Source of the DNA: Dehalococcoidia bacterium
GTDB taxonomy: Bacteria; Chloroflexota; Dehalococcoidia; UBA2979
DNA: 64,000 nucleotides
Direction: 5' to 3'
Assembly: GCA_041390625.1 (NCBI GenBank)
Contig: JAWKPM010000006.1
Location: forward strand, 69,131 to 133,130
A program made the position numbers and the translations under genes. The notes beneath the pieces are model-generated. The model did not search any database. It saw only the letters and a program-made list of their open reading frames with translations, and had not been told where the DNA came from. Positions 19,954 to 46,908 of this stretch are shown here, one piece after another. The first letter of the stretch is position 1. Each line of letters begins with the position of its first letter.

Positions 19954-20018
19954 GGCCGCGGGCGGTGGTGTCCTCGGTCGCGCGCGGGCCTCGCCGCCTC
20001 GTATGCTCTTGGGGCACG

Positions 20019-20094
20019 CGCCGGTAGCTCAGCGGATAGAGCATCAGTCTTCGGAACTGAGGGTCGGGGGTTCGAATCCCTCCCGGCGCGCCAC
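20019..20094 (+). tRNA. tRNA-Arg, anticodon TCG
   Basis: 7-bp acceptor stem gcgccgg/ccggcgc. D-stem gctc/gagc. Anticodon stem tcagt/actga with loop ctTCGga. T-arm ggggg-ttcgaat-ccctc. Discriminator G. CCA is encoded. Confidence 0.85.
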
Positions 20095-20234: not shown

Positions 20235-21479
20235 GTGCCCCAGTGGCGCGACAGGCTCCTAATGCTGGCGGTCACCGCCTTGGGCATCGTGCTCTCGCCG
20301 ATGGCCTGCAGCGATACGCCCACTGAGCAGCGCACGAGGGAAGCCGTTGTCTCCAGCGGCGGGGATTCTCCGCTGCCCTCGGTCACTTCGGCGGCGACTG
20401 CTGTCACGACGAGAACGGTCGCACCTACTCCCCAGCGGCCGGAGCCTCCGCAGGCCGACGGCACGTTGGCTGATGCGATTGTCGCATTGGCGTCGGCGTG
20501 GACGGGGCTCGATGACGAGGCGTTTGAGGTTGCCTCCGTCGAGGAGTTCGATGCGGACGATTCGTGCCTCGGAGCGGAGGCGCTGTGGCTCTCGTGTGTC
20601 GCGGGTACTTCCGTTGCCATTCGCGTCAGGGTTCGAGCCGGTGGCGTCGTGGAATATCAGTTCCACCTCGACGAGGGCGGTTCGACCGCCGTCTGGGTCC
20701 CTGGGGCGACGATCGAGGGCCGCGTGGAAGACGTCTCAGACGACGGGCTTGTCAGGCTGTCTGGGAGTGGCGATGTGTTCGCCAAGACCATCGAGCCCGG
20801 GTTCATTCAAGGTCAGATCGTACCTGGCACCGTGATTCCCGATGGATCGGCGCTCACCCCGGGCACGTTGGTGACGGCGGGAATCGCGGGAAAACCCAAC
20901 TCGGATGTGACGCTACTCGTGGGAATCGTAGCGACACCGCCCTCTCGGCCTGTACCGCTCCACGATCGAGGTACGCGAACGGGAATCGACAGCGTGGACG
21001 AGGTGATTGACGCCGTCCTCTCGGGCGACATCGATGCGCTCGTTGACCGCGCCTCGATGATCAATGCCCCGTGCGTCAGCGACGTTGTGAGTGAAGAAGA
21101 GATGCACCTTCCGCGCTGCGGTGCGAGCGAGAGCATCGGCTCTCGGCACGAGGTTTTCCCATATGGGCACTGCGATGGTCACCTCATTAGCGACCCACGA
21201 GCGCTGCTGACGGATGCTGTGCGGGAGATCGAAGGTCTGTACGCAGTGGTTCGTATTGACCAAGAAGACGGTCTGGACCCGCTCAAGAATTTCGTCGATG
21301 GCGATGTGCGCGTGGTGTTCGCCTCATCTCCGAGCGCGCCGACACGCACTGCGCGGGGCTATGCGTTCGGCCTCAGCGAGGATGGGGCGATCGTGTCCGC
21401 CCGATGGGGTTGTCACACCCCAGAATCTCTGGCCTCCGGACCGGGGGTGGCCGAGCCGATACTCGCGCCTTTGCGCTGA
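20235..21479 (+). CDS. Putative lipoprotein, hypothetical
   Basis: Signal peptide with lipobox LSPMAC-S. 414 aa. The gene has visibly lower GC than its surroundings. Confidence 0.55.
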   Translation: MPQWRDRLLMLAVTALGIVLSPMACSDTPTEQRTREAVVSSGGDSPLPSVTSAATAVTTRTVAPTPQRPEPPQADGTLADAIVALASAWTGLDDEAFEVASVEEFDADDSCLGAEALWLSCVAGTSVAIRVRVRAGGVVEYQFHLDEGGSTAVWVPGATIEGRVEDVSDDGLVRLSGSGDVFAKTIEPGFIQGQIVPGTVIPDGSALTPGTLVTAGIAGKPNSDVTLLVGIVATPPSRPVPLHDRGTRTGIDSVDEVIDAVLSGDIDALVDRASMINAPCVSDVVSEEEMHLPRCGASESIGSRHEVFPYGHCDGHLISDPRALLTDAVREIEGLYAVVRIDQEDGLDPLKNFVDGDVRVVFASSPSAPTRTARGYAFGLSEDGAIVSARWGCHTPESLASGPGVAEPILAPLR

Positions 21480-23180: not shown

Positions 23181-23264
23181 CCGCTGAGGCGGTTGTGCAG
23201 AACTGGCGTTCTGTACGCTATACTCCGCGCGTCTCGCCGTCCCTCGCGACCACCGGCCTACGCC

Positions 23265-24284
23265 ATGACCGTCCGCCTGCTGCCCTGGGCGCCCGAATAC
23301 GGCACATCGATGCAGTTCGATGCGGACGAGGGCGCGCGTGGCGAGGGATCCCCACGCGTCGACGTCGACACCACGGTCGAACAGGCCTCGTGGGCGGCGG
23401 TGCGGGCCTCGGGTGAGGCGCCCTCGACGGTCCAGGTCGTCGACGGGGTGCGTCGCGCGGAGGCGCACGCGCTGGAGGACGGGCCGGGCGGCGAGCCGCT
23501 GTTCGGGCTGTTCGGGTCGTATGCCGTCGGGGCGGTGCGCCTCGAGGGCGGACGGGCGCGCATCCTCGAGGACGCGGTGCGCGTCGAGCGGCGCTACTTC
23601 CAGGCCGGCGGCGAGCCCTCGGATCGGGTCTTCAACGTCGGCGGGCACGCGATGAGCTTTCGCGCCGAGGTGCGGCCCGAGGCAACGACGGCGAACGGCC
23701 TCGTGGACGCGCTCAACCGCGCGATGCTCGACGAGGAATCGAAGCTGGCGGAGTCGCTCTCGCGCGACGAGAGCGCGCTGACGCTCGTTGATGGACCGCT
23801 GAGGAGCCTGCGCTCGCCCGGCCGTCGGGCCGTCGGCTACGTGAAGCGGGTCGTGCACTGGTACGTCTCACCGGAAGCGCAGCGGCTGCTGCCGCGCCTC
23901 GAGGTGGGCGAGCGGACGCCGCTGTTTCGCCTCGACGACGCGGCCGACCTCGGCCGGCCCGGACGCACGAGCTGGTTCCTGCGCATCGCGGATCTCGGGG
24001 CGAGCTGGCATCCCCTCGGCGGGATCATGCGCCTCGAGGTGCCGGGCGGGCTGCCGATCGCGGAGGCCGTTGCGCTCGCGGACCAAAGCGCGATCGTGCT
24101 CCCTCGACTGGCGTCCTCGCCGCATCGGGACCCGCGCGCGCCGCAGAACCTGACGCCGGTGGGCGCGCTCGAGGAGGCGCTGACGCACCGCCTCGGTGAC
24201 CGGCTGTGGGTGCGTCGGTTGATCACCGCGCACGTCGCGGAGGCGGAGCGCGCCTCGTGGGCGCTGCCGGGAGCGGTGCGATGA
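23265..24284 (+). CDS. nurA: NurA-like 5'-3' nuclease
   Basis: About 340 aa. LTLVDGPLRSL resembles the NurA catalytic D-G-S/P motif. The stop overlaps the start of the downstream HerA-like ATPase (ATGA), the canonical NurA-HerA pairing. TTG 23193 is an alternative start. Confidence 0.6.
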   Translation: MTVRLLPWAPEYGTSMQFDADEGARGEGSPRVDVDTTVEQASWAAVRASGEAPSTVQVVDGVRRAEAHALEDGPGGEPLFGLFGSYAVGAVRLEGGRARILEDAVRVERRYFQAGGEPSDRVFNVGGHAMSFRAEVRPEATTANGLVDALNRAMLDEESKLAESLSRDESALTLVDGPLRSLRSPGRRAVGYVKRVVHWYVSPEAQRLLPRLEVGERTPLFRLDDAADLGRPGRTSWFLRIADLGASWHPLGGIMRLEVPGGLPIAEAVALADQSAIVLPRLASSPHRDPRAPQNLTPVGALEEALTHRLGDRLWVRRLITAHVAEAERASWALPGAVR

Positions 24285-26017
24285 CCGAGGGAACGCCGAA
24301 CGGCCTCGAAGCGTTCGCCGCGGCGCTGCCGCCCTCCCTCGAGGGTGAGGCAACCGGCTGGGTGCTGGGGACGCCACAGAACGCGGCGACGCCCCTCGAC
24401 TTCTGGGTGTACGTCGACCCGCAGCACTACCTCCAGCTCGACGACGTCGTGCACGTGCGCTCGTCATTGCCGGACGGCCGGGACGTCGACGTCTACGGCG
24501 TGGTGGACGAGGTGCGGGCGACGCACGAGGGCGTGCGCTTCGAGTCGGACGTCGTGCTGGCGACGGCGGGCACGCTGCCGGTCGAGACCTCGGTCGCGGC
24601 GCACGTCTCGGTGACACGCGTCGAGCCGGAGATCTTCGTGCCGCCGATGCCCGGGCGGGCGGTGTCGCGGGCGCACGGCGCGGCGCGCGAGGAGGCGCTA
24701 TTCTTCGACCGCATGCCGGTGCGCATTCCCCTCGGCCTCTCGCGGTCGGGGGAGTCCGTGTTCGGGAACTTCGACTTCCTGAACGGCACACGCGGCGCGC
24801 ACGTGAACATCAGCGGCATCTCGGGCGTCGCGACGAAGACCTCGTACGCGATGTTCCTGCTGTACGGGCTGCTCGAGGGCGGGGCGCTGGGGGCGGAGGC
24901 GCACACGGCGCGGTCGCTCATCTTCAACGTGAAGGGCGAGGACCTGCTGTTCCTCGATCAGCCGAACGCGGGCCTCGATGGCGACGACCGGGCGCGGTAC
25001 GAGGCGCTCGACCTGCCGGCGCGGCCGTTCCAGTCGGTGGCGTTCTTCGCGCCGGTGAAGCGCGGCAACGAGACCGTGCCGGACACCGGATCGCGGATGG
25101 ACGGGGTGACCGGCTTCTACTGGACGCTGCGCGAGTTCTGCGCCGAAGGCTACCTGCGCTTCCTCTTCACCGACGCCGACGACGACCGATCGCAGCTGGG
25201 CTACATCGTCGACCTCGTGACGCGGCAGCTGCAGATCGTCGCGCGGCTCTCGCCGGCGGACCGCCCGACCGTGCAGATCGCGGGTTCGACGGTCGCGACG
25301 TTCGACGAGCTGGTGGACGCGATCGAGGAGATGACCGACCCGGATGCGGGCGGGACGTGGGCGAGCCGCGCGGCGGCCGGCACCGTGCACGCCTTCCTGC
25401 GCCGCCTCGAGGCCTCGGCGGCGCACGTCGGACACCTCATTCGCGGGAACGCGCCGGGGCACGACGCGCCGCATCGCGTCGACTGGACGCGCACGCAGGT
25501 GACGGTGGTGGACCTCAACCGCCTCCACGATCGCGCCCAGCGCTTCGTCGTCGGCGTGGTGCTGAAGCGGATGTTCGAGGACCGGCTGGCGAGCGGGCAC
25601 AACCGGCCGCTGACGTTCGTCGTCCTCGATGAGCTGAACAAATACGCGCCACGCGAGGGCTCGAGCCCGATCAAGGACGTGCTGCTCGACATCGCCGAGC
25701 GCGGTCGATCCCTCGGGGTGGTGCTGATCGGGGCGCAGCAGACGGCCTCGGAGGTCGAGCCTCGGGTGGTGGCGAACTGCTCGTATCGGGTCGTGGGGCG
25801 CCTCGATGCTGCCGAGGCACAGCGCGGGGAGTACCGCTTCCTCACGCAGGCGGCGCGTGCGCGGGCGAGCCTGCTCAAGCCGGGGAGCCTGATCCTCCAG
25901 CAGCCCGACATCCCGGTGCCGCTGCTCGTGCAATTCCCGCGGCCGGCGTGGGCGACCCGGCCCTCCGAGGTCCCGGAGCGCGCAGACAGCGACGTTTTCG
26001 CGGCGTTCGGCGAGTAG
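24281..26017 (+). CDS. herA: HerA-like FtsK/HerA-clade ATPase (DUF87-type)
   Basis: 578 aa. Walker B VVLDELNKY. C-terminal RGRSLGVVLIGAQQTASEV, a HerA-type arginine-finger region. The Walker A region is degenerate (ISGISGVATKTS). Confidence 0.65.
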   Translation: MTEGTPNGLEAFAAALPPSLEGEATGWVLGTPQNAATPLDFWVYVDPQHYLQLDDVVHVRSSLPDGRDVDVYGVVDEVRATHEGVRFESDVVLATAGTLPVETSVAAHVSVTRVEPEIFVPPMPGRAVSRAHGAAREEALFFDRMPVRIPLGLSRSGESVFGNFDFLNGTRGAHVNISGISGVATKTSYAMFLLYGLLEGGALGAEAHTARSLIFNVKGEDLLFLDQPNAGLDGDDRARYEALDLPARPFQSVAFFAPVKRGNETVPDTGSRMDGVTGFYWTLREFCAEGYLRFLFTDADDDRSQLGYIVDLVTRQLQIVARLSPADRPTVQIAGSTVATFDELVDAIEEMTDPDAGGTWASRAAAGTVHAFLRRLEASAAHVGHLIRGNAPGHDAPHRVDWTRTQVTVVDLNRLHDRAQRFVVGVVLKRMFEDRLASGHNRPLTFVVLDELNKYAPREGSSPIKDVLLDIAERGRSLGVVLIGAQQTASEVEPRVVANCSYRVVGRLDAAEAQRGEYRFLTQAARARASLLKPGSLILQQPDIPVPLLVQFPRPAWATRPSEVPERADSDVFAAFGE

Positions 26018-26027
26018 GAGGCCACCG

Positions 26028-27215
26028 ATGCGCTTCCTGCATACGGCCGACTGGCACCTCGGTCGCACGATTCGCGGGCGGAGCCGCCAGGCGGAGTTCG
26101 AGACGGTGCTGGCGGAGGTCGTGGCGATCGCGCGTTCGGAGCAGGTCGAGGCGGTGCTCGTCTGCGGCGACATCTACGACACGACGACGCCGTCGCCGGA
26201 CTCCGAGCGGCTGCTATACGAGACGCTGCGCGAGCTGATCGGCCTCGACGTGCAGGTGCTGCTGCTGGCGGGGAACCACGACAACCCTCGACGGCTCGAT
26301 GCGCTGGGGCGGCTGTCTGACCTCCTCGGGGTGCACGTGCGCTGGATGCCGCGGCCGGCGGACCAGGGCGGGGTCGTGCACCTCGTGGGGCGGGAGCATG
26401 AGGCGCGGATCGCCGCCGTACCGTGGATCGCGGAGGGGCGGCTCGTCGACGCCGAAGCGCTGTTCGGCCTCGATCGTGACGCGCGCATCGCGGGCTACGC
26501 CGACAGCGCGGCCGCGATCCTGAAGGCGGTGTGTCGCGGCTTCGAGCCGGACACGGTCAACCTCCTCGCGGCGCACATCTTCATCGATGGAGCGCAGCTC
26601 GCGGCCCTCGATGGGTCGGAGCGGCTGCTGCACGTTGGGCAGACGTACGGCATCAACCCGGCCGCGCTGCCCGCGACGCCGCAGTACATGGCACTCGGCC
26701 ACATCCACCAGCCGCAGGAGGTGCGGTCGGCGCCGGCGCCTGCGGCGTACTCGGGATCGCTGTTGCAGCTCGACTTCGGTGAGCGGGGGCAGCAGAAGGT
26801 CGTGCGGATCATCGATGCCGTGCCGGGGCGGCCCGTCGAGCAGCGGGCCGTGCCGCTGACCTCGGGGCGCCCGCTCGTCGAGCTGCGCGGATCGTTCGAC
26901 GAGGTGCTGCGCGAGGCGGGGGACGTCGGTGACGCCCACCTGCGCGTGGTCCTCGATGTGGAGCGGCCGGAGCCGGGGATGGCGCAGCGGTTGCGGGACG
27001 CGGTCGCGGGCGTCGTCGATGTGAGGCTGCAGTACGAGCGCACGGACCTCGATGAGCCGACGCCGGACCTCGCGCAGCTCGCGCCGACGGACCTCTTCGC
27101 GCGCTACTACCGCACGCAGCACGGGGCGGAGCCGGCGCCGGAGTTGCTGGCGCTGTTCAGCGAGCTGTTCGAGGCCGAGTCCTCGATCGAAGCGGGCGTC
27201 GAGGTGGGCTCGTGA
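26028..27215 (+). CDS. sbcD: SbcD/Mre11 nuclease
   Basis: AGGAGG RBS. Phosphoesterase motifs TADWHLG, VCGDIYD and AGNHD. Confidence 0.9.
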   Translation: MRFLHTADWHLGRTIRGRSRQAEFETVLAEVVAIARSEQVEAVLVCGDIYDTTTPSPDSERLLYETLRELIGLDVQVLLLAGNHDNPRRLDALGRLSDLLGVHVRWMPRPADQGGVVHLVGREHEARIAAVPWIAEGRLVDAEALFGLDRDARIAGYADSAAAILKAVCRGFEPDTVNLLAAHIFIDGAQLAALDGSERLLHVGQTYGINPAALPATPQYMALGHIHQPQEVRSAPAPAAYSGSLLQLDFGERGQQKVVRIIDAVPGRPVEQRAVPLTSGRPLVELRGSFDEVLREAGDVGDAHLRVVLDVERPEPGMAQRLRDAVAGVVDVRLQYERTDLDEPTPDLAQLAPTDLFARYYRTQHGAEPAPELLALFSELFEAESSIEAGVEVGS

Positions 27216-30200
27216 AGCCGCTGCGCCTGCAGATCGAGGGGTTCACGGCGTTCCGGCGGCCGGCGGTCGTCGACTTCCGCGACCGCACGCTGTTCGCGAT
27301 CACCGGGCCGACGGGGGCGGGCAAGTCCTCGATCCTCGACGCGATGACGTGGGCGCTGTACGGCGCCGTGCCTCGGGTGGGGAACGCGACGAAGCAGCTG
27401 ATCACGCACGGCGAGCGGTCGCTGCGCGTGCAGCTCGACTTCGAGGCGCGGGGGCAGACGTACCGGGTGGCGCGGGCGACCTCGTTGAGCAGCAGCGGCG
27501 AGGCGCGCCTCGAGGTGCTGGCGGAGGACGGCGTCGCGTGGCGGTCGCTGTCGGACCGGGCACGTGAAGTCACCGAGCGGGTGACGTCGATCCTCGGGTT
27601 GGACTACGCCACGTTCACAAAGACCATCGTGCTGCCGCAGGGCGAGTTCGCCTCGTTCCTGCGCGGGGACGACAAGGACCGCCGCAAGATCCTGAGTGCG
27701 CTCCTGGGCCTCGAGACGTACATGGCGGCGGGGCGGGCGGCGCGGCAGCGGGCGCGCTCGGCGAAGGACGCGAGCGGGATGCTGGCGGCGCAGATCGAGC
27801 GACTGACGTTCGGGACGCCCGAGGCGATGGCCGCCCTGGAAGCGGAGCGCGCGGAGCTGGCGCGGCTGATCGCGGACCTCGATGTGCGACGCGGACACCT
27901 CGCGGCGCTCGAGGAGGCGACGGCCGCGCACCTCGATGCGCGGCGTGCGCTGGTGGCAGCGACCGAGGCGGCGACCGCGCGCGGCCTGGAGCTGACGCAG
28001 GCGCGCACTGACCTCGAGGGGATCGTGGCGCGGCGTACCGGCCTCGATGCGGACATCGCACGCCTCGAGGGTGAGCGGGCCGCGACGCGCTACGACACGG
28101 AGGAGCACACGCGACTCAAGCGAGCGGTCGAGCTCCTCGAACTGCGCGAGCAGGCCGAGGCCGCGGCGACGCGCGCGCGGGCCGCACTCGCCGAGGCCGA
28201 GCGTCGTGTCGAGGAGGCGCGTAGGAGCGGGACCGCCCTCGATGGTGAGGCGACGAAGGCTGCCGCCGCCGCCGGGGGAGCGAGCGAGGTGCGCGCCGCG
28301 GCCTCGAGTGTCGCGCTCGACGCGGCCGGGCGGGCGGCGACGCTCGCGGAGCGGCTCGAGGCGCTGGCGACCTCGAGCGTTGCCTCGGCGGCGGAAGCGG
28401 ATCGAGCGCGGGCGGCGGCCGAGCAGCGCGTCGCGCAGCTGGAGCAGCTGGCGCGCGTGTTGGCCGGGATCGACGAGGAGACGACGCGCCTCGAAGGTGC
28501 GCGTGCGGCAGCCGAAGCCGCGCTCGCCGACGCGACTGCGCGAGCCGAGGCGAGCGAGCGCGCGGCCGTCGAGGCCGAGGCGGGTCTCACCGAGGCGCGC
28601 GCACGCCTCGATGAGGCGACCGCCGGGGATGCCGCGGCCGCGCTGCGAGCGCGACTCAAGCCGGGCGACGTCTGCCCCGTCTGCGGGGAGGTCATCACCT
28701 CGATCGCGGAGCACGAGGCGACGCCTGACCTCGACGCTGCGCACGGCGCGGTCGAGGAGGCGGAGGCGGCGCTCGGCGCTGCACGTCGCGCGCGCGACCT
28801 CGATGTCTCCGCGCTGGCGCGAGCCACCGCGGCGCGCGACGAGGCACTGGCGGCCGAGGCGCGGCTGGCGCCTCGACGGGACGAGCTCGGCACGGCGCTG
28901 ACGAGTTCGGGAGTCGAGACCGCGGAGGCACTGGCGGCGGCAATCGAATCGACGCGCGCGAGCGGCCTCGATGCGGCGACGGAGCACGGGCGGGCGCGAG
29001 CCTTCGCGGAATCGACGCGCGGGGCCGGGCAGGCGCTGACGCAGATCATTGCCTCGGCGCGGGCGGCGCTCGGCCTCGAGGGGCTCGAGGTCGCGGCCGG
29101 CACGATCGACCTCAATGACGACACGCTCCTCGATGAGGCGGCGCGCGTCGGCGGCGAGCTCGAGCGGGCGCTCACGGCGCGGCAGCAGGCGGCGCGCATC
29201 GAAGAACAGGCCGCGCAGACGGCACGGGCGGCCGAGGATGCCGCTCGGCAGGGCGCCGAGACGCTGCGGCTGGCGGAGCGCGAGCAGGCGGCGGCCGCGC
29301 GTGCGGTCGAGGCGGCGGAGTCACAACTCACCTCGATCGCCGGAACCGGCGAGGCTGGCGCGGGCGCGACGCCCGAGGCGACGCGCACTGCGCTCGCCGA
29401 GGCGGAGCGGCAGGCGGCGAGCGTCGCCTCGATCGACGCGCGGCTGCAGGAACAGCGGACTGCGCTCGCGGTGCTCGTGCAGCAGCAGGACGACCGCAGC
29501 TCGATGGTCGCCCGCCTCGATGGGGAAGTGGCGCAGGCCGAGCGGGCGGGGGCGGAGGCGGCGGAGGCCGACCGCGTCGCGACCTCGACGTTCGAGCAGG
29601 CGTGGGTGGCGCTCGTCGGCAGCGAGACCGGCGCGCCGGCGGCGGACGCCGCGCGCGTGCCGGCGCTACGCCAGCGCATCGAGGACCGGGGACGCGAACA
29701 CGCCTCGAAGCTTGGCGCCCTCGAGGCGCGGATCGCGCAGGCGGCGGAGCAGGCGGCGCTGGCCGCGGAGCTGCGGGCGGAGATCGCGGAGCACGAGTCG
29801 CGTGCCCGCCTCGCGACGTCGCTGGAGCAGGAGCTGCACGCGGACCGTTTCATCGCATACGTGCAGCGCGAGGCGCTGGCGGTGCTGGCGGCCGACGCGT
29901 CCTCGCGGCTGCTTCACCTCACGGCGGAGCGCTACCGGCTGGAGGCGGACGCGGGCGAGTTCGTCGTGATCGACCAGCTCAACGGCGACGAGCGGCGCTC
30001 GGTGAAGACGCTGTCGGGCGGCGAGACCTTCCTCGCGAGCCTCGCGCTCGCCCTCGCATTGTCCGAGCGGCTGCCCGAGATCGCAGGCAACGGCGGGGCG
30101 ATGGCCCTCGAATCGCTGTTCCTCGATGAGGGCTTCGGCTCGCTGGACGCGGAGTCGCTGGACGTCGCGATCGAAGGCCTCGAGCGACTGGCGGGCGGGC

Positions 30201-30346
30201 AGCGGATGATCGGCGTGATCTCGCACGTGCCGGAGATCGCTGAGCGGTTGCCGGAGCGCATCGATGTGCTGAAGTCGCCCGACTCGAGCCGCATCGCGGG
30301 CGCGGTGGCGTCGGTCGAGCCGCCGCCGGTGCCGCACCTCGTTTAG
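27212..30346 (+). CDS. sbcC: SbcC/Rad50 ATPase
   Basis: GTGA overlap with sbcD. Walker A GPTGAGKSS. A long Ala/Glu-rich coiled coil with a central CPVCGE zinc-hook CxxC. Signature LSGGETFLASLALALA. Walker B LFLDEGF. Confidence 0.9.
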   Translation: MKPLRLQIEGFTAFRRPAVVDFRDRTLFAITGPTGAGKSSILDAMTWALYGAVPRVGNATKQLITHGERSLRVQLDFEARGQTYRVARATSLSSSGEARLEVLAEDGVAWRSLSDRAREVTERVTSILGLDYATFTKTIVLPQGEFASFLRGDDKDRRKILSALLGLETYMAAGRAARQRARSAKDASGMLAAQIERLTFGTPEAMAALEAERAELARLIADLDVRRGHLAALEEATAAHLDARRALVAATEAATARGLELTQARTDLEGIVARRTGLDADIARLEGERAATRYDTEEHTRLKRAVELLELREQAEAAATRARAALAEAERRVEEARRSGTALDGEATKAAAAAGGASEVRAAASSVALDAAGRAATLAERLEALATSSVASAAEADRARAAAEQRVAQLEQLARVLAGIDEETTRLEGARAAAEAALADATARAEASERAAVEAEAGLTEARARLDEATAGDAAAALRARLKPGDVCPVCGEVITSIAEHEATPDLDAAHGAVEEAEAALGAARRARDLDVSALARATAARDEALAAEARLAPRRDELGTALTSSGVETAEALAAAIESTRASGLDAATEHGRARAFAESTRGAGQALTQIIASARAALGLEGLEVAAGTIDLNDDTLLDEAARVGGELERALTARQQAARIEEQAAQTARAAEDAARQGAETLRLAEREQAAAARAVEAAESQLTSIAGTGEAGAGATPEATRTALAEAERQAASVASIDARLQEQRTALAVLVQQQDDRSSMVARLDGEVAQAERAGAEAAEADRVATSTFEQAWVALVGSETGAPAADAARVPALRQRIEDRGREHASKLGALEARIAQAAEQAALAAELRAEIAEHESRARLATSLEQELHADRFIAYVQREALAVLAADASSRLLHLTAERYRLEADAGEFVVIDQLNGDERRSVKTLSGGETFLASLALALALSERLPEIAGNGGAMALESLFLDEGFGSLDAESLDVAIEGLERLAGGQRMIGVISHVPEIAERLPERIDVLKSPDSSRIAGAVASVEPPPVPHLV

Positions 30347-30391: not shown

Positions 30392-31225
30392 ATGACCTCG
30401 ATGACTCCAGAGACCTCGATGGACGGATCTCACGTCGCGGCGCTGTACCACCATCCGGTGAAGGGGCTGACGCCCGAGTCGGTTGAGCACCTCAAGGTGC
30501 TCGCGAGCGGGGCGGTCGAGGGTGATCGCGTCCTCGGGCTGCAGCTGGCCGACGCGGGGCCGCCCGTGCGTGGGGAGTGGTGGCCGAAGGACCGCTTCGT
30601 CACGCTGATGACGACGCCGGGGCTCGCCCGCCTCGATGCGCGCTTCGACGTGGAGTCGCGGCGGCTGCGCCTCGAGGCTGGCGGGGAGTTGCTGGCGTCA
30701 GCGCAGCTCGATGACGTGTCGGAGCGAAGCGCCCTCGAGGCGGCCGCGACGGAGTTCGTGCTGTCGCTCGACGAGAACCCGCTGGCGGGGCGGCCGGAGC
30801 GTGCGCCGCTGCGGTTGGTGGGCGACGGACGCACGCCCCGGTTTCATGACCGTGGCGCGCGGCAGGTCACGATCCTCAACCGCGCCTCGGTGCGAGCGCT
30901 GACCGAGGCGATCGGCGCGCCGATCGACGAGCGGCGCTTCCGCGGGAACGTCGTCCTCGATGGGCTGGCGCCGTGGGACGAGTTGACGTGGGTCGGGCGG
31001 GACATCGTCCTCGGGAGCACGCGGTTCCGGGTGACGGGACCGGTGATTCGCTGCCTCGCGACGCACGCGGATCCCGAGGGCGGTGGCCATGACCTGCCGG
31101 TGATGCAGACCCTCGTGCGGGCGTTCGAGCAGGAGCAGCCGACGATGGGCGTGCTGGCCGAGATGCGGGGCGGGGGCGGCGACCTCGATGTGGGCGCGGG
31201 TCTCGAGGTGCGCGCGGAGAGCTAG
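30392..31225 (+). CDS. MOSC domain-containing protein
   Basis: RFRGNVVLDG...GPVIRCLATHADPEGG with the conserved MOSC Cys. 277 aa. Confidence 0.8.
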   Translation: MTSMTPETSMDGSHVAALYHHPVKGLTPESVEHLKVLASGAVEGDRVLGLQLADAGPPVRGEWWPKDRFVTLMTTPGLARLDARFDVESRRLRLEAGGELLASAQLDDVSERSALEAAATEFVLSLDENPLAGRPERAPLRLVGDGRTPRFHDRGARQVTILNRASVRALTEAIGAPIDERRFRGNVVLDGLAPWDELTWVGRDIVLGSTRFRVTGPVIRCLATHADPEGGGHDLPVMQTLVRAFEQEQPTMGVLAEMRGGGGDLDVGAGLEVRAES

Positions 31226-31686: not shown

Positions 31687-32727
31687 CTAGACCTCGTCGA
31701 GTCGGACGACGCGGCCGCCCTCGTTCCACGAGCGGTAGACCGCCTCGGTGAACTGCATGTAGCGCACACCGTCCTCGAAGTTGGTGAGCTCGACGGGGGC
31801 ACCGTCGCGGATCGAAGCGACGAAGTCGGCCTCGACCTGCCAGCCGTGCGCCGTGCCCTCGTCGGGGTCGAGCGGCGCGACTTCGCCTCCGACTGGCGCG
31901 AAGGACATCGAGTCGCCCACCCGCCAGTGGAGCGTGCCGTTCGAACCGTAGACGGAGACGCCATTCGCCTCGACGGTCGCGTTCGCGACAGTGCTCAGTC
32001 GCATCGTGAGTCGCGCACCGCTTTCGAGGCGGCCGATCACGCCGAGGCTGTCGGGCACGTCGAGGGTGACCGGCTGGTCGCTGTCGCCGTCGATGCGCGA
32101 GGTGATGAAGGTCTCGGCGTCGGCGGCGACGCGCTCGAAGGGGCCGAGCCAGCGCTGCACGGCCTCGGCGAGGATGCCCATGATCATGACGTTGGCGCCG
32201 GAATAGCGCTGCTGTTCGCGCCAGTGCGGGGGCGCCTCGCGCAGGCTGTTGCCGTTCATCGAGGTGACGTGGACCTCGCGGATCATGCCGAGCGAGCCGT
32301 CGGCGACGAGTCGGCGGATCGTGCGCCACGACTTGAAGTCGAACGGTGCCGGCACGATCTGGGCGACGAGGTCGGGGTGGGCCTGGGAGGCGGCGAGCAT
32401 GTCGCGGGCCTCGGAGGCGTTCATCGCCATGCGGGCCTCGACGAGGACGTGCTTGCCGGCCTCCAGCGCGCGCACGACGAAGTCGCGGTGCATGTAGGGC
32501 CAGGTGCCGATGCAGACGGCATCGATGTCGTCGGCGCCGAAGATGTCGTCGGGGTCGATGGTCACCCGGTCGATGCCGTGGGCGTCGGCGACGCGTTGGC
32601 CACTGGCCTCTGAGCGGTTGCAGACGGCGACGAGCTCCACGCCCTCGATGGCCTGCAGGCCGGGGATGTGGCGCAGGGTCGTGTTGGCGCCGGCGCCGAT
32701 GAAGCCGACGCGGAGTGGTTCAACCAT
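31687..32727 (-). CDS. Gfo/Idh/MocA family oxidoreductase
   Basis: N-terminal Rossmann fold VGFIGAGANTTLRHIPGLQ and an EKP-like motif. 346 aa. Confidence 0.85.
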   Translation of the reverse strand: MVEPLRVGFIGAGANTTLRHIPGLQAIEGVELVAVCNRSEASGQRVADAHGIDRVTIDPDDIFGADDIDAVCIGTWPYMHRDFVVRALEAGKHVLVEARMAMNASEARDMLAASQAHPDLVAQIVPAPFDFKSWRTIRRLVADGSLGMIREVHVTSMNGNSLREAPPHWREQQRYSGANVMIMGILAEAVQRWLGPFERVAADAETFITSRIDGDSDQPVTLDVPDSLGVIGRLESGARLTMRLSTVANATVEANGVSVYGSNGTLHWRVGDSMSFAPVGGEVAPLDPDEGTAHGWQVEADFVASIRDGAPVELTNFEDGVRYMQFTEAVYRSWNEGGRVVRLDEV

Positions 32728-35513: not shown

Positions 35514-37970
35514 GTGAAGGACGCGCATTCGATGAATTGGGACGAGCGCGAACGAACCTCGGGCGTCGTCGCAGACTGGATTGCCTCCGGTCGGCGCCCG
35601 TACGCGGACGTGCTTCGCAACCTCGGAGAGCTGCTGGTCGCCATCGCCGAACACGATGGCGCCGAGCGCACCTCGCCACCCCAGCGGGCGCGGGGCGATG
35701 CAGTCACGGCCGGCGGTCCAGCCCGCGCGGCCAGGGAGGGAACCATGACTGAGACGACGGAGCGGGCCACGCGGGAGGCGTTCTTCCCTCCGCCGTTGCC
35801 ATCGGCCGAGGCGCCCTCGACCGAGGACATCGCGATGATGCTCGCGGACGCGCGCGCGCGTGCGCATGAGCTGATCGACCAGTCGGTTGCCCGGGCGAAG
35901 GAGATGCTGGAGCGACGACAGCCGGCCGTCGACGAGGCGGCGACGAACGCGCAGCGTGAGGCGCAGCGCCTCGCCCTCGAGCGGCTGCGGCGATCCGTGG
36001 CCGAGATCCACTCCGACATTCGTGCGCTGCACGCGCGCCTCGATGGGATCGAGGGGCTGCTGCGACAGCGCCGCGAGCCCGACACCTCGACGAGCGCGGC
36101 GAACTCGGGCGGTACGCCGACCGCGACCGCACGCCCATCGGCCGCCGCCGCCTCGACGGCTGCGCCCTCGGCCTCGAAGGCCGCCGCACCGGCAGCGAAG
36201 TCGACGGCGCCGAGCGCCACGACCGCGCCGGCGGCCAGTACCACCGACTCGGCTGCGCCGACGGCGCGCCCGACGATGCCGGCTCGGAGTGAGTCGGAGC
36301 GCACTTCGACCTCGAACACCGCGAGCTCGACGGCCACGACCGGCTCGACCGCGACGCCGGCGCGCGACGAGCGCGCTGAGGACGCCGCCAAGCAGGAGGC
36401 GTCCTCGGACGCTGGCACGTCCTCGGCGACGGCCACGCCGGATGCGGTCGCCGCCGTGCGGGCCGAGCGGACCGAGCGCAGCTCCGAGGAGCGCGCCGCC
36501 CTCGCGGCCGGTGCGCGGGCCTCGCTGGCCACGGCTACCGACGAGGACGACGCGAAGGCCGAGACCTCGGGTGGCGCGAAGTCCGAGGACGCGGAGCGAG
36601 CGGGCACCTCGACGGCGGCGACGGCTTCGGCGCCGACGGACGCGCGCAGCGAGGCGACTTCCGCCGCCGCCTCGACGGCCGCGACCTCGGACGCGGAGCG
36701 AACCGCCGAGCAGCACGCGGAGCCCGCGACGGCGACGCCGAGCGAGGCAGCCGCGCGGGCGACGAGCGCTGAGACGAGCGAGCCGCCCGTCGAGCAGGCG
36801 CACCGCCGGATCGAGGACGCCGTCGCCACGGCGCTCACGGCCGCGCGGAATGCCGCGATAGCCGCCGCGAAGCCGGCGCTGCCCTCGAGCCTGGCCGGCA
36901 GCGGGCGTGACCGCGAGACCTCGAACCTCGACGAGTCGACGGAGGCGCCGCCTGCCAGTTCGGCCACGACGACCCGTACGCCGGCCTCGGTCGGGTCTGG
37001 CGCGCGCAACGAGCTGCAGAGCGCGGCGCCGGCGGAGCCTCGGACGAGCGAGGCCTCCAAGGAGCAGACGTCATCGAGCTCGACGGGTGCGACCTCGACG
37101 TCCGCCGCGAGCACCCCGAGCGCGGCTCGCAGCGAGGCGCCTGCCTCGGCGCGACCGGCCGGGCTGTGGACGCCGCCGACGGTGGCGCCGCCAACGCCCG
37201 CTCAGCCTCGAGCGGAGGCGCCCGCTGAGGTTGCTTCGAGCGAGGCGACGCAGAAGAAGGACGAGTCCGAGGCGGCACGTGACGCCTCGAGTGAGGCAGT
37301 GGAGCGCACCGTGGCGGCCTCGGCGCTGCGTCAGGAGAGCGAGCGGCGCTCGCCGCTGACGCCCACGCCGCGGCCGTTCACGCCCGTGACGCCGCCGAGC
37401 GGGAGCGCGACGCCGACCGTCGAGCGGGTCGTCGAACCTGCCTCGCAGGGGCTGCCGCGATTCGCGACGCCGGTGCAGTCCGGTAGCGAGCGGGCCACCG
37501 AAGAGGCCGAGGCGACCTCACCTCGGACGTCGGCGCCGCCGGCCTCGTTGCGGCCGAACCCGCCGACCCTGACGCCGCCGCGCGGCCACTCGGACGCGCC
37601 GCCGGCGGAGACCTACGTCCCGGGCAAGGCCGCCGAGGCGCTCACTCGTGAGGAACCGGCCTCGGAGGCCGCGGAGAGCAGCAGCAAGTCGACTGCCTTC
37701 CCCGGTGGAGGTGCGATCGTCGTTCGCGTGTCGCCCATCTCGGGCTTCCAGGGGCTGATGCGCGTGCAGGACGCGATTGCGAACCTGCGAGAGGTGCGCG
37801 AGGCCGCCGTCGAGGCGTACGCTCGGGGCGAGGCGCAGCTGCGCGTCGCGCTGGTCGACGAACTCGCGCCGGAGCGCCTGACCAAGGCGCTCTCGGACGG
37901 GCTCGGCCAGGACGCGAAGGTTGAGGCAGCCTCGGTCGATGAGCGCACCATGCGGGTGACGCTGGCGTAG
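35514..37970 (+). CDS. Large (818 aa) Ala/Ser/Thr/Glu-rich low-complexity protein with short structured N- and C-terminal regions
   Basis: About 80% of the protein is a compositionally biased disordered region. The last ~90 aa (AIVVRVSPISGFQGLMRVQDAIANLREVREAAVEAY...) look folded. It lies between the response regulator and the histidine kinase. Confidence 0.55.
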   Translation: MKDAHSMNWDERERTSGVVADWIASGRRPYADVLRNLGELLVAIAEHDGAERTSPPQRARGDAVTAGGPARAAREGTMTETTERATREAFFPPPLPSAEAPSTEDIAMMLADARARAHELIDQSVARAKEMLERRQPAVDEAATNAQREAQRLALERLRRSVAEIHSDIRALHARLDGIEGLLRQRREPDTSTSAANSGGTPTATARPSAAAASTAAPSASKAAAPAAKSTAPSATTAPAASTTDSAAPTARPTMPARSESERTSTSNTASSTATTGSTATPARDERAEDAAKQEASSDAGTSSATATPDAVAAVRAERTERSSEERAALAAGARASLATATDEDDAKAETSGGAKSEDAERAGTSTAATASAPTDARSEATSAAASTAATSDAERTAEQHAEPATATPSEAAARATSAETSEPPVEQAHRRIEDAVATALTAARNAAIAAAKPALPSSLAGSGRDRETSNLDESTEAPPASSATTTRTPASVGSGARNELQSAAPAEPRTSEASKEQTSSSSTGATSTSAASTPSAARSEAPASARPAGLWTPPTVAPPTPAQPRAEAPAEVASSEATQKKDESEAARDASSEAVERTVAASALRQESERRSPLTPTPRPFTPVTPPSGSATPTVERVVEPASQGLPRFATPVQSGSERATEEAEATSPRTSAPPASLRPNPPTLTPPRGHSDAPPAETYVPGKAAEALTREEPASEAAESSSKSTAFPGGGAIVVRVSPISGFQGLMRVQDAIANLREVREAAVEAYARGEAQLRVALVDELAPERLTKALSDGLGQDAKVEAASVDERTMRVTLA

Positions 37971-38090
37971 CCGCCGTCGCGGCTGGCTGGAGGACGCGGC
38001 ATCTTCGATCAGCTCGCGTTCGATCCAGAGGTCGGCTCGACGCTCCGACGCATCTCGGCCGCCACGCGCCGCCTGCAACTGGCGGCGCTC

Positions 38091-39657: not shown

Positions 39658-40842
39658 ATGCACGTCTCTCACCTCGAGCTCTCGAATGTGCGCTCGTTTC
39701 GACGCCTCGAGCTCCCGCTCGCGCCGGGGATTCACGTCGTCGTCGGGTCGAACGCCAGCGGGAAGACGAACCTGCTCGAGGCGATCGCGATGCTGGCGAC
39801 GACGCGCGGGGTACGCGGCGGCAGCGACGGCGAGCTGATCTCCTGGGACGCCGTTCGGGAGGACCCGCTGCCCGCGGCGCGGTTGGCGGCGCAGGTCGAA
39901 TCCAACGGCGGGCGGACGAGCATCGAGATCACCGTGATCGCGCGGGCGGGCGGCCTCGCGGCGAGCGCGGACGCGCCCACGGCCTCGAGGCGGTTTCGCG
40001 TCAACGGCGTCGCGCGGCGGGCCTCGGACCTGATCGGGCGGCTGCGCGTCGTCATGTTCTCCGCGGACGACATCGCGATCATCGACGGATCGCCCTCGGG
40101 GCGGCGCCGTTTCCTAGACATCACGCTGTCGCAGCTCGATGGACGCTACGTGCGTGCGCTGCAGCGCTACGGGCGCGTGGTTCAGCAGCGGAACAGCCTG
40201 CTGCGGCAGTTCCAGGGCCGGCGGCACGACCCGAACGAGCTCGAGTTCTGGGACGGCGAGCTGGCGACGGCGGGGGCCGTGATCCTCGGTGGGCGGGCGC
40301 GGCTGCTGTGCGAGCTGGGGAAAGAGGCGGCGGCGCGCCACGCGGAGCTCTCGACGGGGTCGGCGCCCCTCGAGATCGCGTATCGCCCGGCGGTGCCGGA
40401 CGGCCTCGACGTGGGCCAGCCGGAGGAGGCGCTCGAGGCGGCGCTGCGCGAGGCGCTCGAGCAGGGGCGGGCGCACGATGTGCGGCGGGGAGTGACGCAG
40501 ATCGGGCCGCACCGCGACGACGTCGCGTTCCTCCTCGGCGGGCACGACGCGGGCGCGTATGCCTCGAGGGGGGAGCAGCGCACGGTGGCGCTGGCGCTGC
40601 GCCTCGCCGAGGTGGCGCTGTCGACCTCGAGGACGGGCGAGCCGCCCCTGCTGCTGCTCGACGACATCCTCTCGGAGCTCGACGAGGAGCGGCGGGCGCG
40701 GGTGATCCATGCTGCGTACGACGTCGACCAGGTGCTGATTACGACCCCGGACGGCGATCGTCCGACGGCGGAGGAGCTGCCCGGCGCGCGGCGTTACCGG
40801 TTATCGGAGGGCGCGCTGCATCCCATCGAGGCGTCGACGTAG
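39658..40842 (+). CDS. recF: DNA replication and repair protein RecF
   Basis: Walker A GSNASGKTN. SMC-like signature SRGEQRTVALALRLAE. Walker B LLLLDDILSELD. 394 aa. Confidence 0.85.
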   Translation: MHVSHLELSNVRSFRRLELPLAPGIHVVVGSNASGKTNLLEAIAMLATTRGVRGGSDGELISWDAVREDPLPAARLAAQVESNGGRTSIEITVIARAGGLAASADAPTASRRFRVNGVARRASDLIGRLRVVMFSADDIAIIDGSPSGRRRFLDITLSQLDGRYVRALQRYGRVVQQRNSLLRQFQGRRHDPNELEFWDGELATAGAVILGGRARLLCELGKEAAARHAELSTGSAPLEIAYRPAVPDGLDVGQPEEALEAALREALEQGRAHDVRRGVTQIGPHRDDVAFLLGGHDAGAYASRGEQRTVALALRLAEVALSTSRTGEPPLLLLDDILSELDEERRARVIHAAYDVDQVLITTPDGDRPTAEELPGARRYRLSEGALHPIEAST

Positions 40843-42920: not shown

Positions 42921-45251
42921 CTACGAGGCGCGCCCGATGCGCTTGCGCTTGTGCTGGACGTAGTCGACGAGGATGTACTCGCCGAGCTTGTCCGGTGTGG
43001 TGTAGAAGACGCGGCCACCGTTGATCTTTGCCAGCTGGTTCACGAACTCCTTCAGATAGTAGTTGCGATCCAGCATGAAGGTATTGATGGTGATCCGCTG
43101 CTGCGACACGCGCTTCACGGCCTTGAGCGTCTCGCGAATCGTGATGGGGCTGGGCGGGTAGGCGAACTGCGAGCGGCCGCGCTCGAGGTGCGCCGTGGGC
43201 TCGCCGTCCGAGATCATCAGGATCTGCCTCGTGGCGCCCTTGTGCTTGGCGAGCAGCTGCTCGGCCATCATGAAGGCGTGGTGCATGTTCGTGCCGAGGA
43301 CGGACTCGTCCCAGCGCACGTACGGCAGCTCGTGGAGCTTCAACTCGCGGGCGTAGGCCGAGAACCCGATGACGTAGAGGTGGTCGCGCGGGTACATCGA
43401 CGTGATGAGGTTCTGCAGCGCGAGCGCGACCTTCTTCGCGGCCTGGAACGAGCCTCGCAGGGCCATCGACCACGAGAGGTCGACCATCAGCACGGTCGCC
43501 GTCTGGGTCACCAGCTCCGAGCGATAGACCTCGAAGTCGTCGGGGTGCAGGCGGACGGGCATCGAGGCGCCTTCGCGCTCGAGGGCGTTACGGATGGTGC
43601 GCTCCATGTGGAGGTGGAACGGGTCACCGAACTCGTAGGGCTTGGTCTCGTCGATGCGCTCGCCGAGGCGGCCGGACTCCGGCGTCGGGTGGTTGCCGAT
43701 GCCCTGCTTGCGGAGCTGCTTGTAGATCTCGCCGAGGGCCTTCTGGCCGATGGTGCGCATGCCTCGGGGCGTGAGCTCCCAGGCGTCGCCGTCGCGCCGC
43801 ACGTAGCCGGCCTTCTCCAGCACCTCGAGGAGCTGCTTCAGCTCATCGAGGGTGTCGACGGCGTCGTCGCCGAGCAGCTCCCGCAGGGCATCGACGTCGA
43901 TGTGCTCGAGGTCGCCGCCGTACTGGGCGCGCTCGAGGTCGCGCTCGAGGCCATCGATGTCCTGCATCTGGCGCATGAGCTCCATGGCCGCCTCGAGACC
44001 GATCTCCTCGTCGCCGCGGAACGGGTAGGAGGAGGCCTGGTCCCTGGAGGGGTTGAGGAAGTCGAGGTTCTGCGCGAGCTGGCTCAGCTCGCCCTCGAGC
44101 TCCGGGTCGCCGAGCTTGTCGCCCAGCATCGACTGGAGCTGCTCACGCTGGTCGCCGGGGAGTGACTCCATCAGCGACTGCATGGCGGACATCTGCGCCT
44201 GCATCTGCTGGATCAGCTCGTCGAGCGACTGCGGCGGGTTGTCGCCGAACATGTCGCCGAACTGCTCCATGAAGTTCTCGAAGTCGGGCTCACCGCCGCG
44301 CATGCGCTCGGTGAGCATGTCGTTGAGGGCGCGCGCCATGTCTTTCATGCGCTGCATGTCGCCCTCGGACATCTGCTCGACCATCTGCTGCACGTTCTGG
44401 AAGAACGAGTTCACCATGGACTGGCGGAGGCTCTCGACGAGCTCCTGGAACTTGTGCTGTGCCTCGGGGTTGAGGAACTCGTAGTTCTGGAGCTCGCGCA
44501 TCTGGCCGGCGGGCTCGGGCGGCAGGTCATCGAGGAAGTCGTTCTTGCGCTCGGCGATGCGCCGGAGCATCTCGGCGAACTGCTCCTCCTCGGAGCGGCC
44601 GTCCTGGGCGGCGCCGCCTTCGGCGCCCTGTTCGCCACCCTGTTCGGAGCCGGGCTGGCCCGGCTGCCCGGGCTGTTGCTGGCCCGCCTGGCCTCGTTGC
44701 CCGGCCTGACCGCGCTGACCGCGCGCACCGCTCATCGAGGGGGTGCCGCGTGCGGAGGAGGGGGCGCCGTTCGCGCCCTCGGAGCCGGGTGCGCCGGACT
44801 CGCCCTGATCGCCGTCGGCGCCCGCCTCACCCTGCTCGCCGGAATCGCCTTCGGAGGGCTCGCCCGACTGCTGGTCGCTGGGGGCCTCGCCGGCCTGGTC
44901 GCCGCCCTGGGGCTGGCCGCCGGCCTGCTCCAGGCGCTCGCGGAGCGTGTCGCGCTCGAGACCGAGGATCTCCTCCAACTGTCGCTGGATGTCCTCCATG
45001 ATCCCGGAGAGGTCGAACTGGTCGAGGCGCTGGCGGCGCTGCTGGCGCAACTGCTGGAGGAGGTCGCGGAGGCCCTGCATGCGATCGCCCTGCGGGGTGC
45101 GCATGCCGCGCTGCATCAGGTTGCGCAGCGCGTGCTGGAGGTCGCCGAAGTTCATGAGGTCGTCGGTGAGCGCCTCGAGCACGTCGGCGGCGTCGAGCGT
45201 CGGGATGTCCTGTGTCCCGTCCCACTCGGAGTATCGGTAGCGCGTCGTCAT
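42921..45251 (-). CDS. VWA-domain protein with a long acidic Gly/Gln/Glu-rich linker
   Basis: C-terminal MIDAS VLMVDLSWSM (DxSxS). Central low-complexity acidic region. 776 aa. Gene downstream of the ChlI-like ATPase. Confidence 0.8.
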   Translation of the reverse strand: MTTRYRYSEWDGTQDIPTLDAADVLEALTDDLMNFGDLQHALRNLMQRGMRTPQGDRMQGLRDLLQQLRQQRRQRLDQFDLSGIMEDIQRQLEEILGLERDTLRERLEQAGGQPQGGDQAGEAPSDQQSGEPSEGDSGEQGEAGADGDQGESGAPGSEGANGAPSSARGTPSMSGARGQRGQAGQRGQAGQQQPGQPGQPGSEQGGEQGAEGGAAQDGRSEEEQFAEMLRRIAERKNDFLDDLPPEPAGQMRELQNYEFLNPEAQHKFQELVESLRQSMVNSFFQNVQQMVEQMSEGDMQRMKDMARALNDMLTERMRGGEPDFENFMEQFGDMFGDNPPQSLDELIQQMQAQMSAMQSLMESLPGDQREQLQSMLGDKLGDPELEGELSQLAQNLDFLNPSRDQASSYPFRGDEEIGLEAAMELMRQMQDIDGLERDLERAQYGGDLEHIDVDALRELLGDDAVDTLDELKQLLEVLEKAGYVRRDGDAWELTPRGMRTIGQKALGEIYKQLRKQGIGNHPTPESGRLGERIDETKPYEFGDPFHLHMERTIRNALEREGASMPVRLHPDDFEVYRSELVTQTATVLMVDLSWSMALRGSFQAAKKVALALQNLITSMYPRDHLYVIGFSAYARELKLHELPYVRWDESVLGTNMHHAFMMAEQLLAKHKGATRQILMISDGEPTAHLERGRSQFAYPPSPITIRETLKAVKRVSQQRITINTFMLDRNYYLKEFVNQLAKINGGRVFYTTPDKLGEYILVDYVQHKRKRIGRAS

Positions 45252-46685: not shown

Positions 46686-46908
46686 TGGTCGTTCGCTCGT
46701 CAACGCGCCAGTCCTCCCCTGGGGGCAGGCGGTTCGCACCGAGTGCGCCTGCCGTGATGTTCCGAAGCCGTTCAGCGGATGTCTGCCGAACGTGGCGCCA
46801 GTATACGCCCCCCGTCAGCGCGCCTGTCCGGGGCTCGACGAGCCCCCTCGATATGCAACGAGCCCCGCGTGAGCGGGGCTCGTGACTTCGCGGCGGAGGA
46901 CGGTTCGC

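Follow-up and report, generated by a model that had tools for sequence, protein, structure and literature searches.

A chromosomal nurA-herA-sbcD-sbcC gene string in a Dehalococcoidia bacterium and its counterparts across the bacterial HerA family

In archaea such as Sulfolobus and Pyrococcus, the herA, mre11, rad50, and nurA genes are clustered in one operon, and archaea are the only organisms in which co-operation of NurA-HerA with Mre11-Rad50 is documented. Among bacteria, a structure has been solved for NurA-HerA of Deinococcus radiodurans (7F6D, 7WRW, 7WRX; PMC9960219), a system said to occur in few bacteria, such as Deinococcus-Thermus, and whose function has been called controversial (PMC9960219); its connection with SbcCD has been left open in the literature (PMC4663267). 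A nurA-hepA-sbcD-sbcC cluster was noted in Oceanithermus profundus by Blesa et al. 2017 (PMC5448004); the authors took the layout as supporting a function similar to archaeal double-strand break (DSB) repair, and presented it as a special case in which a single genus had recruited SbcCD. Here, we describe a nurA-herA-sbcD-sbcC string encoded in a 64,000-nucleotide (nt) stretch of a Dehalococcoidia bacterium genome (contig JAWKPM010000006.1, positions 69,131 to 133,130; referred to below as the window), which an earlier note, made from the sequence alone, had presented as an archaeal-style end-resection operon.

Our reading, to which we assign a probability of ca. 0.75, is that the four genes form a chromosomal, single-transcript operon for DNA end processing, and that NurA-HerA and the bacterial SbcCD would most likely act as one machine on DSB ends.

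The four genes and their closest described relatives

The genes and the protein motifs discussed below are as follows (aa, amino acids).

23265-24284, + strand: nurA, 339 aa, bacterial-type NurA nuclease
24281-26017, + strand: herA, 578 aa, bacterial-type HerA hexameric translocase ATPase
24815-24841, + strand: HerA Walker A motif GISGVATKT, read from the sequence, family-invariant
about 25619-25633, + strand: HerA Walker B motif VVLDE, family-invariant
25697-25711, + strand: HerA arginine-finger region ERGRS, family-invariant
26028-27215, + strand: sbcD, 395 aa, Mre11-family nuclease
27212-30346, + strand: sbcC, 1044 aa, Rad50-family SMC-like ATPase, GTG start
28673-28684, + strand: SbcC zinc hook CPVC, residues 488-491 of 1044

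The co-oriented, tightly packed arrangement described in the earlier note was borne out by the sequence. The nurA stop codon and the herA ATG overlap in ATGA (24281-24284), the sbcD TGA and the sbcC GTG overlap in GTGA (27212-27215), and the herA-sbcD spacer is 10 nt long, with a GGAGG ribosome-binding site located 7 nt ahead of the sbcD ATG. Terminator-like sites on the + strand and σ70-like promoters were sought inside the four-gene string, and none were found. With neighbouring genes that share 4 nt or stand 10 nt apart, and with no + strand terminator-like site found between them, we consider the four to be one operon. Only the start of the string had to be moved. The earlier note had placed it at 23193, the TTG that begins the longest nurA open reading frame (ORF). 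This TTG falls inside the −35-like hexamer of the promoter described below, while the conserved N-terminus (MTVRLLPW, with W8 conserved in 93% of 67 relatives) begins at the ATG at 23265, which is the nurA start.

The product of the first gene scored 31.6 bits against the Pfam NurA model PF09376 (gathering score 21), and matched D. radiodurans NurA (7f6d_H) with E=8.8e-31 and Thermotoga TM1739 (1zup) with E=1.2e-5. When 67 cluster-linked NurA proteins were compared, D60-G61, E158, D176-G177, K194, R291, Q294, and N295 showed 91-100% conservation; D60, E158, and D176, which are 100% conserved in this set, are candidate acidic residues of an RNase-H-like active site. The HerA protein had no Pfam match at all, and PF01935 (DUF87), by which the earlier note had expected HerA to be recognized, gave none at E<=0.1. 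The conclusion that the protein is “not HerA” was nevertheless rejected, since a family profile matched D. radiodurans HerA (drHerA; 7f6d_B, 7wrw, 7wrx) over its full length, with E=1.8e-188 and 631 bits (query positions 12-564 aligned with chain residues 7-603 of 7f6d_B). The profile was built from 16 homologues; more than 8000 homologue clusters were found, many of them 60-90% identical. Thus, the identities proposed for the first two genes hold, and their products are orthologues of drNurA-HerA, homologous to it along the full length of both proteins.

The earlier note had regarded the HerA Walker A motif as degenerate. The motif has one residue more than GxxGxGK[ST], but it is invariant in the family, whose alignment contains N-I-S-G-[IV]-S-G-V-A-T-K-T, the Walker B segment VVLDELNKYAPREG, and ERGRSLG, with the arginine finger inside it, as invariant elements. 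The drHerA residues K175/T176, K217/D220, D487/E488, R495, and R513 align with K186/T187, K218/D221, D450/E451, R458, and R476 of the protein studied here, and K186/T187, K218/E220/D221, D450/E451, R458, and R476 are invariant across the 16 family members. In this order, they represent the Walker A Lys/Thr, the site of the catalytic acidic residue that follows β2, the Walker B Asp-Glu, the pore arginine, and the arginine finger acting in trans. In the drHerA structure, Walker A lies between β1 and α1, with K175 of the same motif pairing with the β-phosphate of ADP and T176 coordinating Mg2+ (PMC9960219); according to earlier work cited there, mutations of K175 and D487/E488 impair ATPase activity and resection. 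The charge of degeneracy can thus be dropped, and GISGVATKT is predicted to be the normal, working P-loop of bacterial HerA. The family is compact: 460 clusters (at 50% identity, many of them fragments) were found at E<=1e-30 among 1.84 billion representatives, a small count that reflects strong sequence conservation.

The locus thus shares with D. radiodurans the GISGVATKT P-loop, the DE of Walker B, the arginine finger, and the DNA-contacting arginine of HerA, as well as a nurA-herA operon with nurA first. It differs in that sbcD and sbcC follow herA directly in the same transcription unit, that a LexA-type box is present, and that D165 occupies the position of drHerA R154, which is not conserved. 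The D. radiodurans sbcCD genes presumably lie elsewhere in the genome.

The sbcD product scored 172.6 bits against TIGR00619 (cutoff 77.65), and both the Metallophos (PF00149) and SbcD_C (PF12320) models exceeded their gathering scores. Its phosphoesterase motifs are complete, as the earlier note had said (DWH, GD, GNHD, H183, and GHxH), and D8, H10, D48, N83-H84, H183, H225, and H227 are invariant in 68 relatives. SbcC scored above the gathering scores of AAA_23 (78.5 bits) and SbcC_Walker_B (38.5 bits), and reached 299.5 bits against TIGR00618, under the cutoff of 478.5; by its scores it is a divergent SbcC, still by far closest to SbcC models. The motifs of a split ABC-type head are present (Walker A GPTGAGKS at residue 32, LSGGE at 934, FLDEGFG at 970, and ISHV at about 1003), and the zinc hook that had been reported in the 1044-aa protein is indeed there. 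Of 64 cluster-linked SbcC proteins, 62 have a CPxC hook about half-way along the chain. E. coli SbcCD is likewise a two-subunit nuclease/ATPase with phosphoesterase motifs, an ABC-type head, and a CxxC hook; in contrast to the present locus, it has no NurA-HerA partner genes, and the E. coli-type equivalog models gave only 126 and 160 bits here (cutoffs 450 and 750).

The same four functional components are clustered in the archaeal operon, and in this sense the description “archaeal-style” stands. It does not extend to the type of the proteins. HerA scored 13 bits on the archaeal model NF040819 (cutoff 970), no archaeal HerA chain appeared at E<=1 when the HerA family was used in a profile search of the PDB, and SbcD and SbcC matched the bacterial SbcCD models with scores several-fold above those from the archaeal Mre11/Rad50 models. 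By these scores, the four proteins are of bacterial type and not a recent archaeal import.

Gene linkage across genomes

To place the string in context, genomes were scanned at one per GTDB species. At least 594 loci with a HerA of the present family were found, and the best 80 were analyzed, with gene order called by tblastn using the four window proteins. The 80 loci come from Dehalococcoidia and other Chloroflexota, Acidimicrobiia, Micromonosporaceae (Actinoplanes, Micromonospora, Longispora), Acidobacteriota, Gemmatimonadota, Myxococcota, Planctomycetia, and Saprospiraceae, and from metagenome-assembled genomes of Gamma-, Delta-, and Alphaproteobacteria. Of the 79 loci that could be assessed, 75 had sbcD downstream of herA in the same orientation, with a gap of 300 bp or less in 66 of them. 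All four genes stood in one string in 64 of the 80 loci, and most of the others were truncated contigs. The earlier note had held that bacterial HerA and NurA genes are generally not combined in one operon with SbcCD, and had allowed that the four genes might prove scattered in homologous genomes. The survey contradicts the former and found the opposite of the latter: linkage of NurA-HerA with SbcCD is the norm for the present bacterial HerA family, not an oddity.

Two gene orders were observed, nurA-herA-sbcD-sbcC, as in the window, and herA-sbcD-sbcC-nurA, which is the archaeal order and characterizes a sister clade (Acidimicrobiia, Micromonosporaceae). In a HerA tree, loci with the latter order formed one clade nested within the nurA-first loci. 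Since this is a quick neighbour-joining tree (BLOSUM62 distances, midpoint rooting, no bootstrap), we say only that, if its topology holds, it looks as if one rearrangement moved nurA and left the cluster intact. More distant HerA proteins (44%, 34%, and 32% identity) are still encoded in x-herA-sbcD-sbcC strings, and two others (36% and 39% identity) lie outside such strings. Because HerA proteins as distant as 32-44% identity keep herA-sbcD-sbcC strings, the four-gene linkage looks ancestral for the bacterial HerA family, and probably is. The Oceanithermus cluster has the same bacterial four-gene layout as the window and comes from another phylum; in contrast to its description as a special case, the linked state in our survey is widespread and probably ancestral.

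Nine loci (L019, L022, L026, L028, L043, L048, L053, L060, and L076) contain inserts of 0.6-3.4 kb between herA and sbcD, so that the operon is sometimes split without dispersal of the cluster. By eye, the inserted genes were thioredoxin/DsbA-like, glycosyltransferase-like, FAD oxidoreductase, MerR-like, and DinB-like, and lay on mixed strands. A fifth cluster component at this position was considered and rejected, since the inserted genes are unrelated and differ in strand.

The promoter region and possible functions

The 84-nt gap ahead of nurA contains the sequence TTGTGC-AGAACTGGCGTTCT-GTACGC-TATACT, in which the following elements were read from the sequence.

23193-23224, + strand: putative promoter with LexA-type operator
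23193-23198, + strand: −35-like hexamer TTGTGC
23199-23212, + strand: LexA-type box AGAACTGGCGTTCT, a perfect GAAC-N4-GTTC
23219-23224, + strand: −10-like hexamer TATACT

The inverted repeat extends to GTGCAGAAC/GTTCTGTAC (23195-23216), with arms of 9 nt that are complementary at 8 of 9 positions. GAAC-N4-GTTC occurs only once in the 64-kb window, at the nurA promoter, against 0.46 occurrences expected. An identical box and TATACT are found upstream of nurA in an 88%-identical relative (L081), whose upstream genes differ, and boxes that are perfect or have one mismatch precede nurA by 27-61 nt in 8 of 25 further nurA-first loci (background 0.36 per kb). In Firmicutes and Actinobacteria, GAAC-N4-GTTC is the described LexA motif, and Chloroflexi have been reported to possess variants of it (PMC4951493). 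The unique perfect box in the promoter, its retention in L081, and its recurrence upstream of nurA elsewhere suggest that the operon is under LexA/SOS control; the suggestion is well founded for this lineage, with the proviso that the consensus comes from other groups and may not be that of the host. An exact scan for the operator plus the −10 hexamer gave 0 matches in the JGI metagenome collection; the known close relative with this promoter sits in ENA, not in JGI, which deprives the negative of weight.

A different conserved block, located about 130-40 nt upstream of herA, was observed in Actinoplanes-group loci (L046, L052, L055, L058, L064, L065, L067, L070, and L077). It contains three DnaA-box-like 9-mers in one orientation (TTGTG[CG]ATAA, CTGTGGATG, and TTGTGGACAA), the last of which we take to be the complement of the Streptomyces-type DnaA box TTGTCCACA, followed by a promoter-like TTGTCGTAC-N8-CAnnAT that, in our estimation, loosely resembles the actinobacterial RecA-independent damage promoter. 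That motif (RecA-NDp) was rejected as a feature of the herA-first loci: a strict regular expression that approximates it, TGTC[AG]G[TC]G, had no match upstream of herA.

The course of events that we propose for the operon is the following. SbcC dimers, joined through their CPVC zinc hooks, would bind DNA ends, and SbcD would open or clean ends that are hairpin-capped or blocked. The HerA hexamer would then use ATP, through the K186/T187 P-loop, D450/E451, and the R476 finger, to pump duplex DNA into a NurA dimer seated on its HAS-barrel face. NurA would split the strands and degrade the one with the 5' end, so that a 3' tail would remain on which RecA can be loaded. LexA bound at the operator inside the promoter would probably repress the operon, and DNA damage would induce it. 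The physical co-operation of SbcCD with NurA-HerA is what we infer by analogy with the archaeal module; the binding of LexA and the in-vivo role of the operon are likewise proposals. In vitro, drNurA-HerA does resect the 5' strand (PMC9960219).

A recF gene (39658-40842, + strand; TIGR00611, 296 bits, cutoff 172) lies 9 kb downstream of the operon. A recF homologue, 35% identical, was also observed directly after sbcC in L084-L086 (13598-14776), a lineage with a 44%-identical HerA. Besides L084-L086, none of the fetched loci had recF near the cluster. The proximity of recF fits RecFOR-type loading of RecA, and the association is rare.

Several observations weigh against the reading of the operon as a damage-inducible DSB-end processing unit. 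A contact between SbcCD and HerA has not been shown in any bacterium, and the connection has been called an open question (PMC4663267). Deletion of nurA and herA in D. radiodurans raises resistance to ultraviolet light (UV) and mitomycin C about 10-fold, and the authors propose that NurA-HerA competes with RecJ-RecQ (PMC9960219). The in-vivo role of bacterial NurA-HerA is unsettled. On the side of regulation, the two hexamers of the putative promoter are 20 nt apart, longer than the canonical spacing, and a σ70 scan called no promoter there. No LexA-type box was found in the 27-61 nt interval upstream of herA-first loci. The next relatives, the Dehalococcoidia loci L001 and L002, do not have a canonical LexA-type box; at the same place, L001 (6810-6850) contains GGAACC-CCGC-GGTTCC, with GAAC-N6-GTTC spacing, 9 nt before TATACT, and in L002 (6850-6890) a single half-site is left. 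The operator in these two relatives may have drifted or been lost.

The alternative that survives best is that the proteins serve mainly DNA transactions other than recombinational break repair, such as clearing of hairpins or stalled forks, DNA uptake or transfer, or tolerance of heat and other stress, as has been suggested for Thermus HepA. Hairpin cleavage at replication forks is the best-known activity of E. coli SbcCD. The published picture for a Thermus HerA homologue is mixed, its mutants reportedly showing heat and UV sensitivity along with defects in competence and in the donation of DNA. The D. radiodurans knockouts, being more and not less resistant to damage (PMC9960219), point in the same direction. 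Against these stand the tight and deeply conserved coupling to SbcCD, the LexA-type box, and recF as an occasional neighbour, all of which fit end resection, as does the in vitro activity of drNurA-HerA (PMC9960219). Such roles are also compatible with break repair rather than exclusive of it. We consider it unlikely that they are the function of the operon in place of the processing of DSB ends.

A native locus, its neighbourhood, and its significance

The earlier note had pointed to a low-GC patch next to a tRNA gene upstream of the operon, and had suggested that a defence or mobile origin be considered. The features concerned, together with the genes that follow sbcC, are listed below (GC3, G+C content at third codon positions).

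20018-20093, strand not given: tRNA-Arg(TCG), adjoining the low-GC ORF
20235-21479, + strand: 414-aa ORF of the low-GC patch, GC 0.64, GC3 0.72 against about 0.9 in its neighbours
30392-31225, strand not given: MOSC gene downstream of sbcC, so placed also in a third Dehalococcoidia genome
31222-31638, strand not given: holin-family membrane protein gene downstream of sbcC
31687-32727, strand not given: GFO/IDH/MocA oxidoreductase gene downstream of sbcC

The patch is real: the region 20.2-21.5 kb has a GC of 0.64, and the G+C content of the window is about 71%. Its bearing on the origin of the operon did not survive closer inspection. The patch holds a single ORF, whose product begins, by eye, with a hydrophobic stretch followed by Cys, as in lipoproteins, and has no Pfam or NCBIfam match; no integrase was found nearby. 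Two genes of native composition, encoding a 259-aa protein and a GNAT acetyltransferase, lie between it and the operon. The GC3 values of the four operon genes are 0.88-0.93, inside the 0.81-0.97 range of the other window genes, so that codon usage, too, gives no sign of foreign origin, and neither an integrase nor a transposase was found near the operon. A mobile island at the tRNA gene was accordingly rejected. The holin-family and GFO/IDH/MocA genes recur behind sbcC in two Dehalococcoidia genomes with a 72%-identical HerA, and, overall, synteny with Dehalococcoidia genomes of 63-72% HerA identity covers two to three genes downstream of the operon. The upstream flank is not conserved, even in the 88%-identical relative. 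When searched by tblastn, the HerA family was found in 6 of 72,556 plasmid records, which are megaplasmids and one mislabelled chromosome, and, at 27% identity, in 2 of 50,697 phage records. We take the locus to be a native and stable part of the chromosome.

These data bear on a second alternative, in which the operon would be an anti-phage or anti-plasmid system, with SbcCD sensing foreign DNA ends or structures and HerA-NurA degrading the invader. HerA-family ATPases are cores of several defence systems, and those with SIR2 or DUF4297 effectors (8xau, 8ziq, 9c1m) have in common with the present locus an FtsK/HerA-superfamily core and a nuclease-type partner. HerA chains of anti-phage systems (8xau, 8ziq, 9c1m, and 8yho) were indeed weak matches to the HerA studied here. 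The similarity is, however, confined to the C-terminal ATPase core (E 1e-6 to 2e-3), no such effectors are encoded here, the partner genes being NurA and SbcCD, and the present locus is chromosomal, conserved, and syntenic. Searches with defence models gave a similar picture. PADLOC matched HerA to mad8 and HerA, and SbcC to LmuB and mad3, but the matches were small and limited to the P-loop or C-terminal core: HerA reached at most 29 bits, in the C-terminal region only, compared with 631 bits to drHerA; the SbcC matches reflect generic SMC-head similarity; and NurA had no PADLOC match. The NCBIfam anti-phage HerA models NF042943 and NF042944 gave 23.6 and 15.3 bits (cutoffs 800 and 850), the former score being that of HerA_antiphage. 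With weak core matches as the only yield of either collection, a defence assignment was rejected, and the defence origin raised in the earlier note finds no support in these models.

The similarity of HerA between phyla is unusually high (53-72% identity) and its distribution patchy, which fits horizontal spread and speaks for this second alternative. Against it, hardly any plasmid or phage records contain the family, the locus has native codon usage, neither an integrase nor a transposase turned up close to it, and class-level relatives share its downstream flank. The proteins are also very highly conserved, unlike fast-evolving defence genes, and a LexA-type operator suits repair genes. One plasmid-borne cluster must be added to the observations that weigh against a repair function: on a linear megaplasmid of Streptomyces, the genes adjoin Wadjet-like TIGR02680/TIGR02678/DUF2397 genes and ImmA/IrrE genes. 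This herA-sbcD-sbcC-nurA cluster (L091) is located at 413748-429379 of the 452-kb NZ_CP134205.1 from Streptomyces sp. BB1-1-1. Taken together, a defence role appears quite improbable. Finally, chance adjacency of four functionally unconnected genes, which we regard as having a negligible probability, is already refuted by the synteny survey, in which linkage spans several phyla, has survived a rearrangement, and persists at 32-44% HerA identity, and it sits poorly with overlapping start and stop codons.

Other features of the window were observed farther downstream.

35514-37970, + strand: 818-aa ORF of low complexity, rich in Ala, Ser, Thr, Pro, and Glu
37980-38063: tRNA-Ala(CGC)
42921-45251, − strand: 776-aa VWA-domain protein, Gly-rich and collagen-like in its N-terminal region
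45297-46739, − strand: AAA ATPase gene, Mg-chelatase-subunit-like

The 818-aa ORF ends just before the tRNA gene and lies where GC is highest (0.77) and AT skew is strong; it fails the GC3/GC2 gene filter, and its protein-coding status is uncertain. The gene for the VWA-domain protein adjoins the AAA ATPase gene.

The operon in the window is, thus, an ordinary housekeeping repair operon and not a new system. The kind of system was known from the solved structure and from the four-gene layout in Oceanithermus; what has been too little recognized is how widespread and how deeply conserved the linkage is. An annotation gap may be seen in the one NCBI-annotated copy examined, that on the Streptomyces megaplasmid, in which HerA is labelled “ATP-binding protein” and the gene at the NurA position “hypothetical protein”.

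A more far-reaching proposal, which we put forward tentatively and rate at a little short of even odds, is that the string is a self-contained, damage-inducible end-resection machine that is ancestral to the whole family of bacterial HerA proteins and occurs in eight phyla or more, with the Deinococcus-Thermus versions being derived and uncoupled from SbcCD. If true, this would explain the puzzling knockout phenotypes in Deinococcus-Thermus, and would overturn what has been published on bacterial NurA-HerA, namely its restriction to a few bacteria and the lack of a known connection with SbcCD. The survey also points to carriers that are perhaps easier to grow and manipulate, Actinoplanes and Micromonospora, and the results as a whole provide a testable model, in which SbcCD together with NurA-HerA would be the bacterial counterpart of the archaeal Mre11-Rad50-HerA-NurA resection machine.

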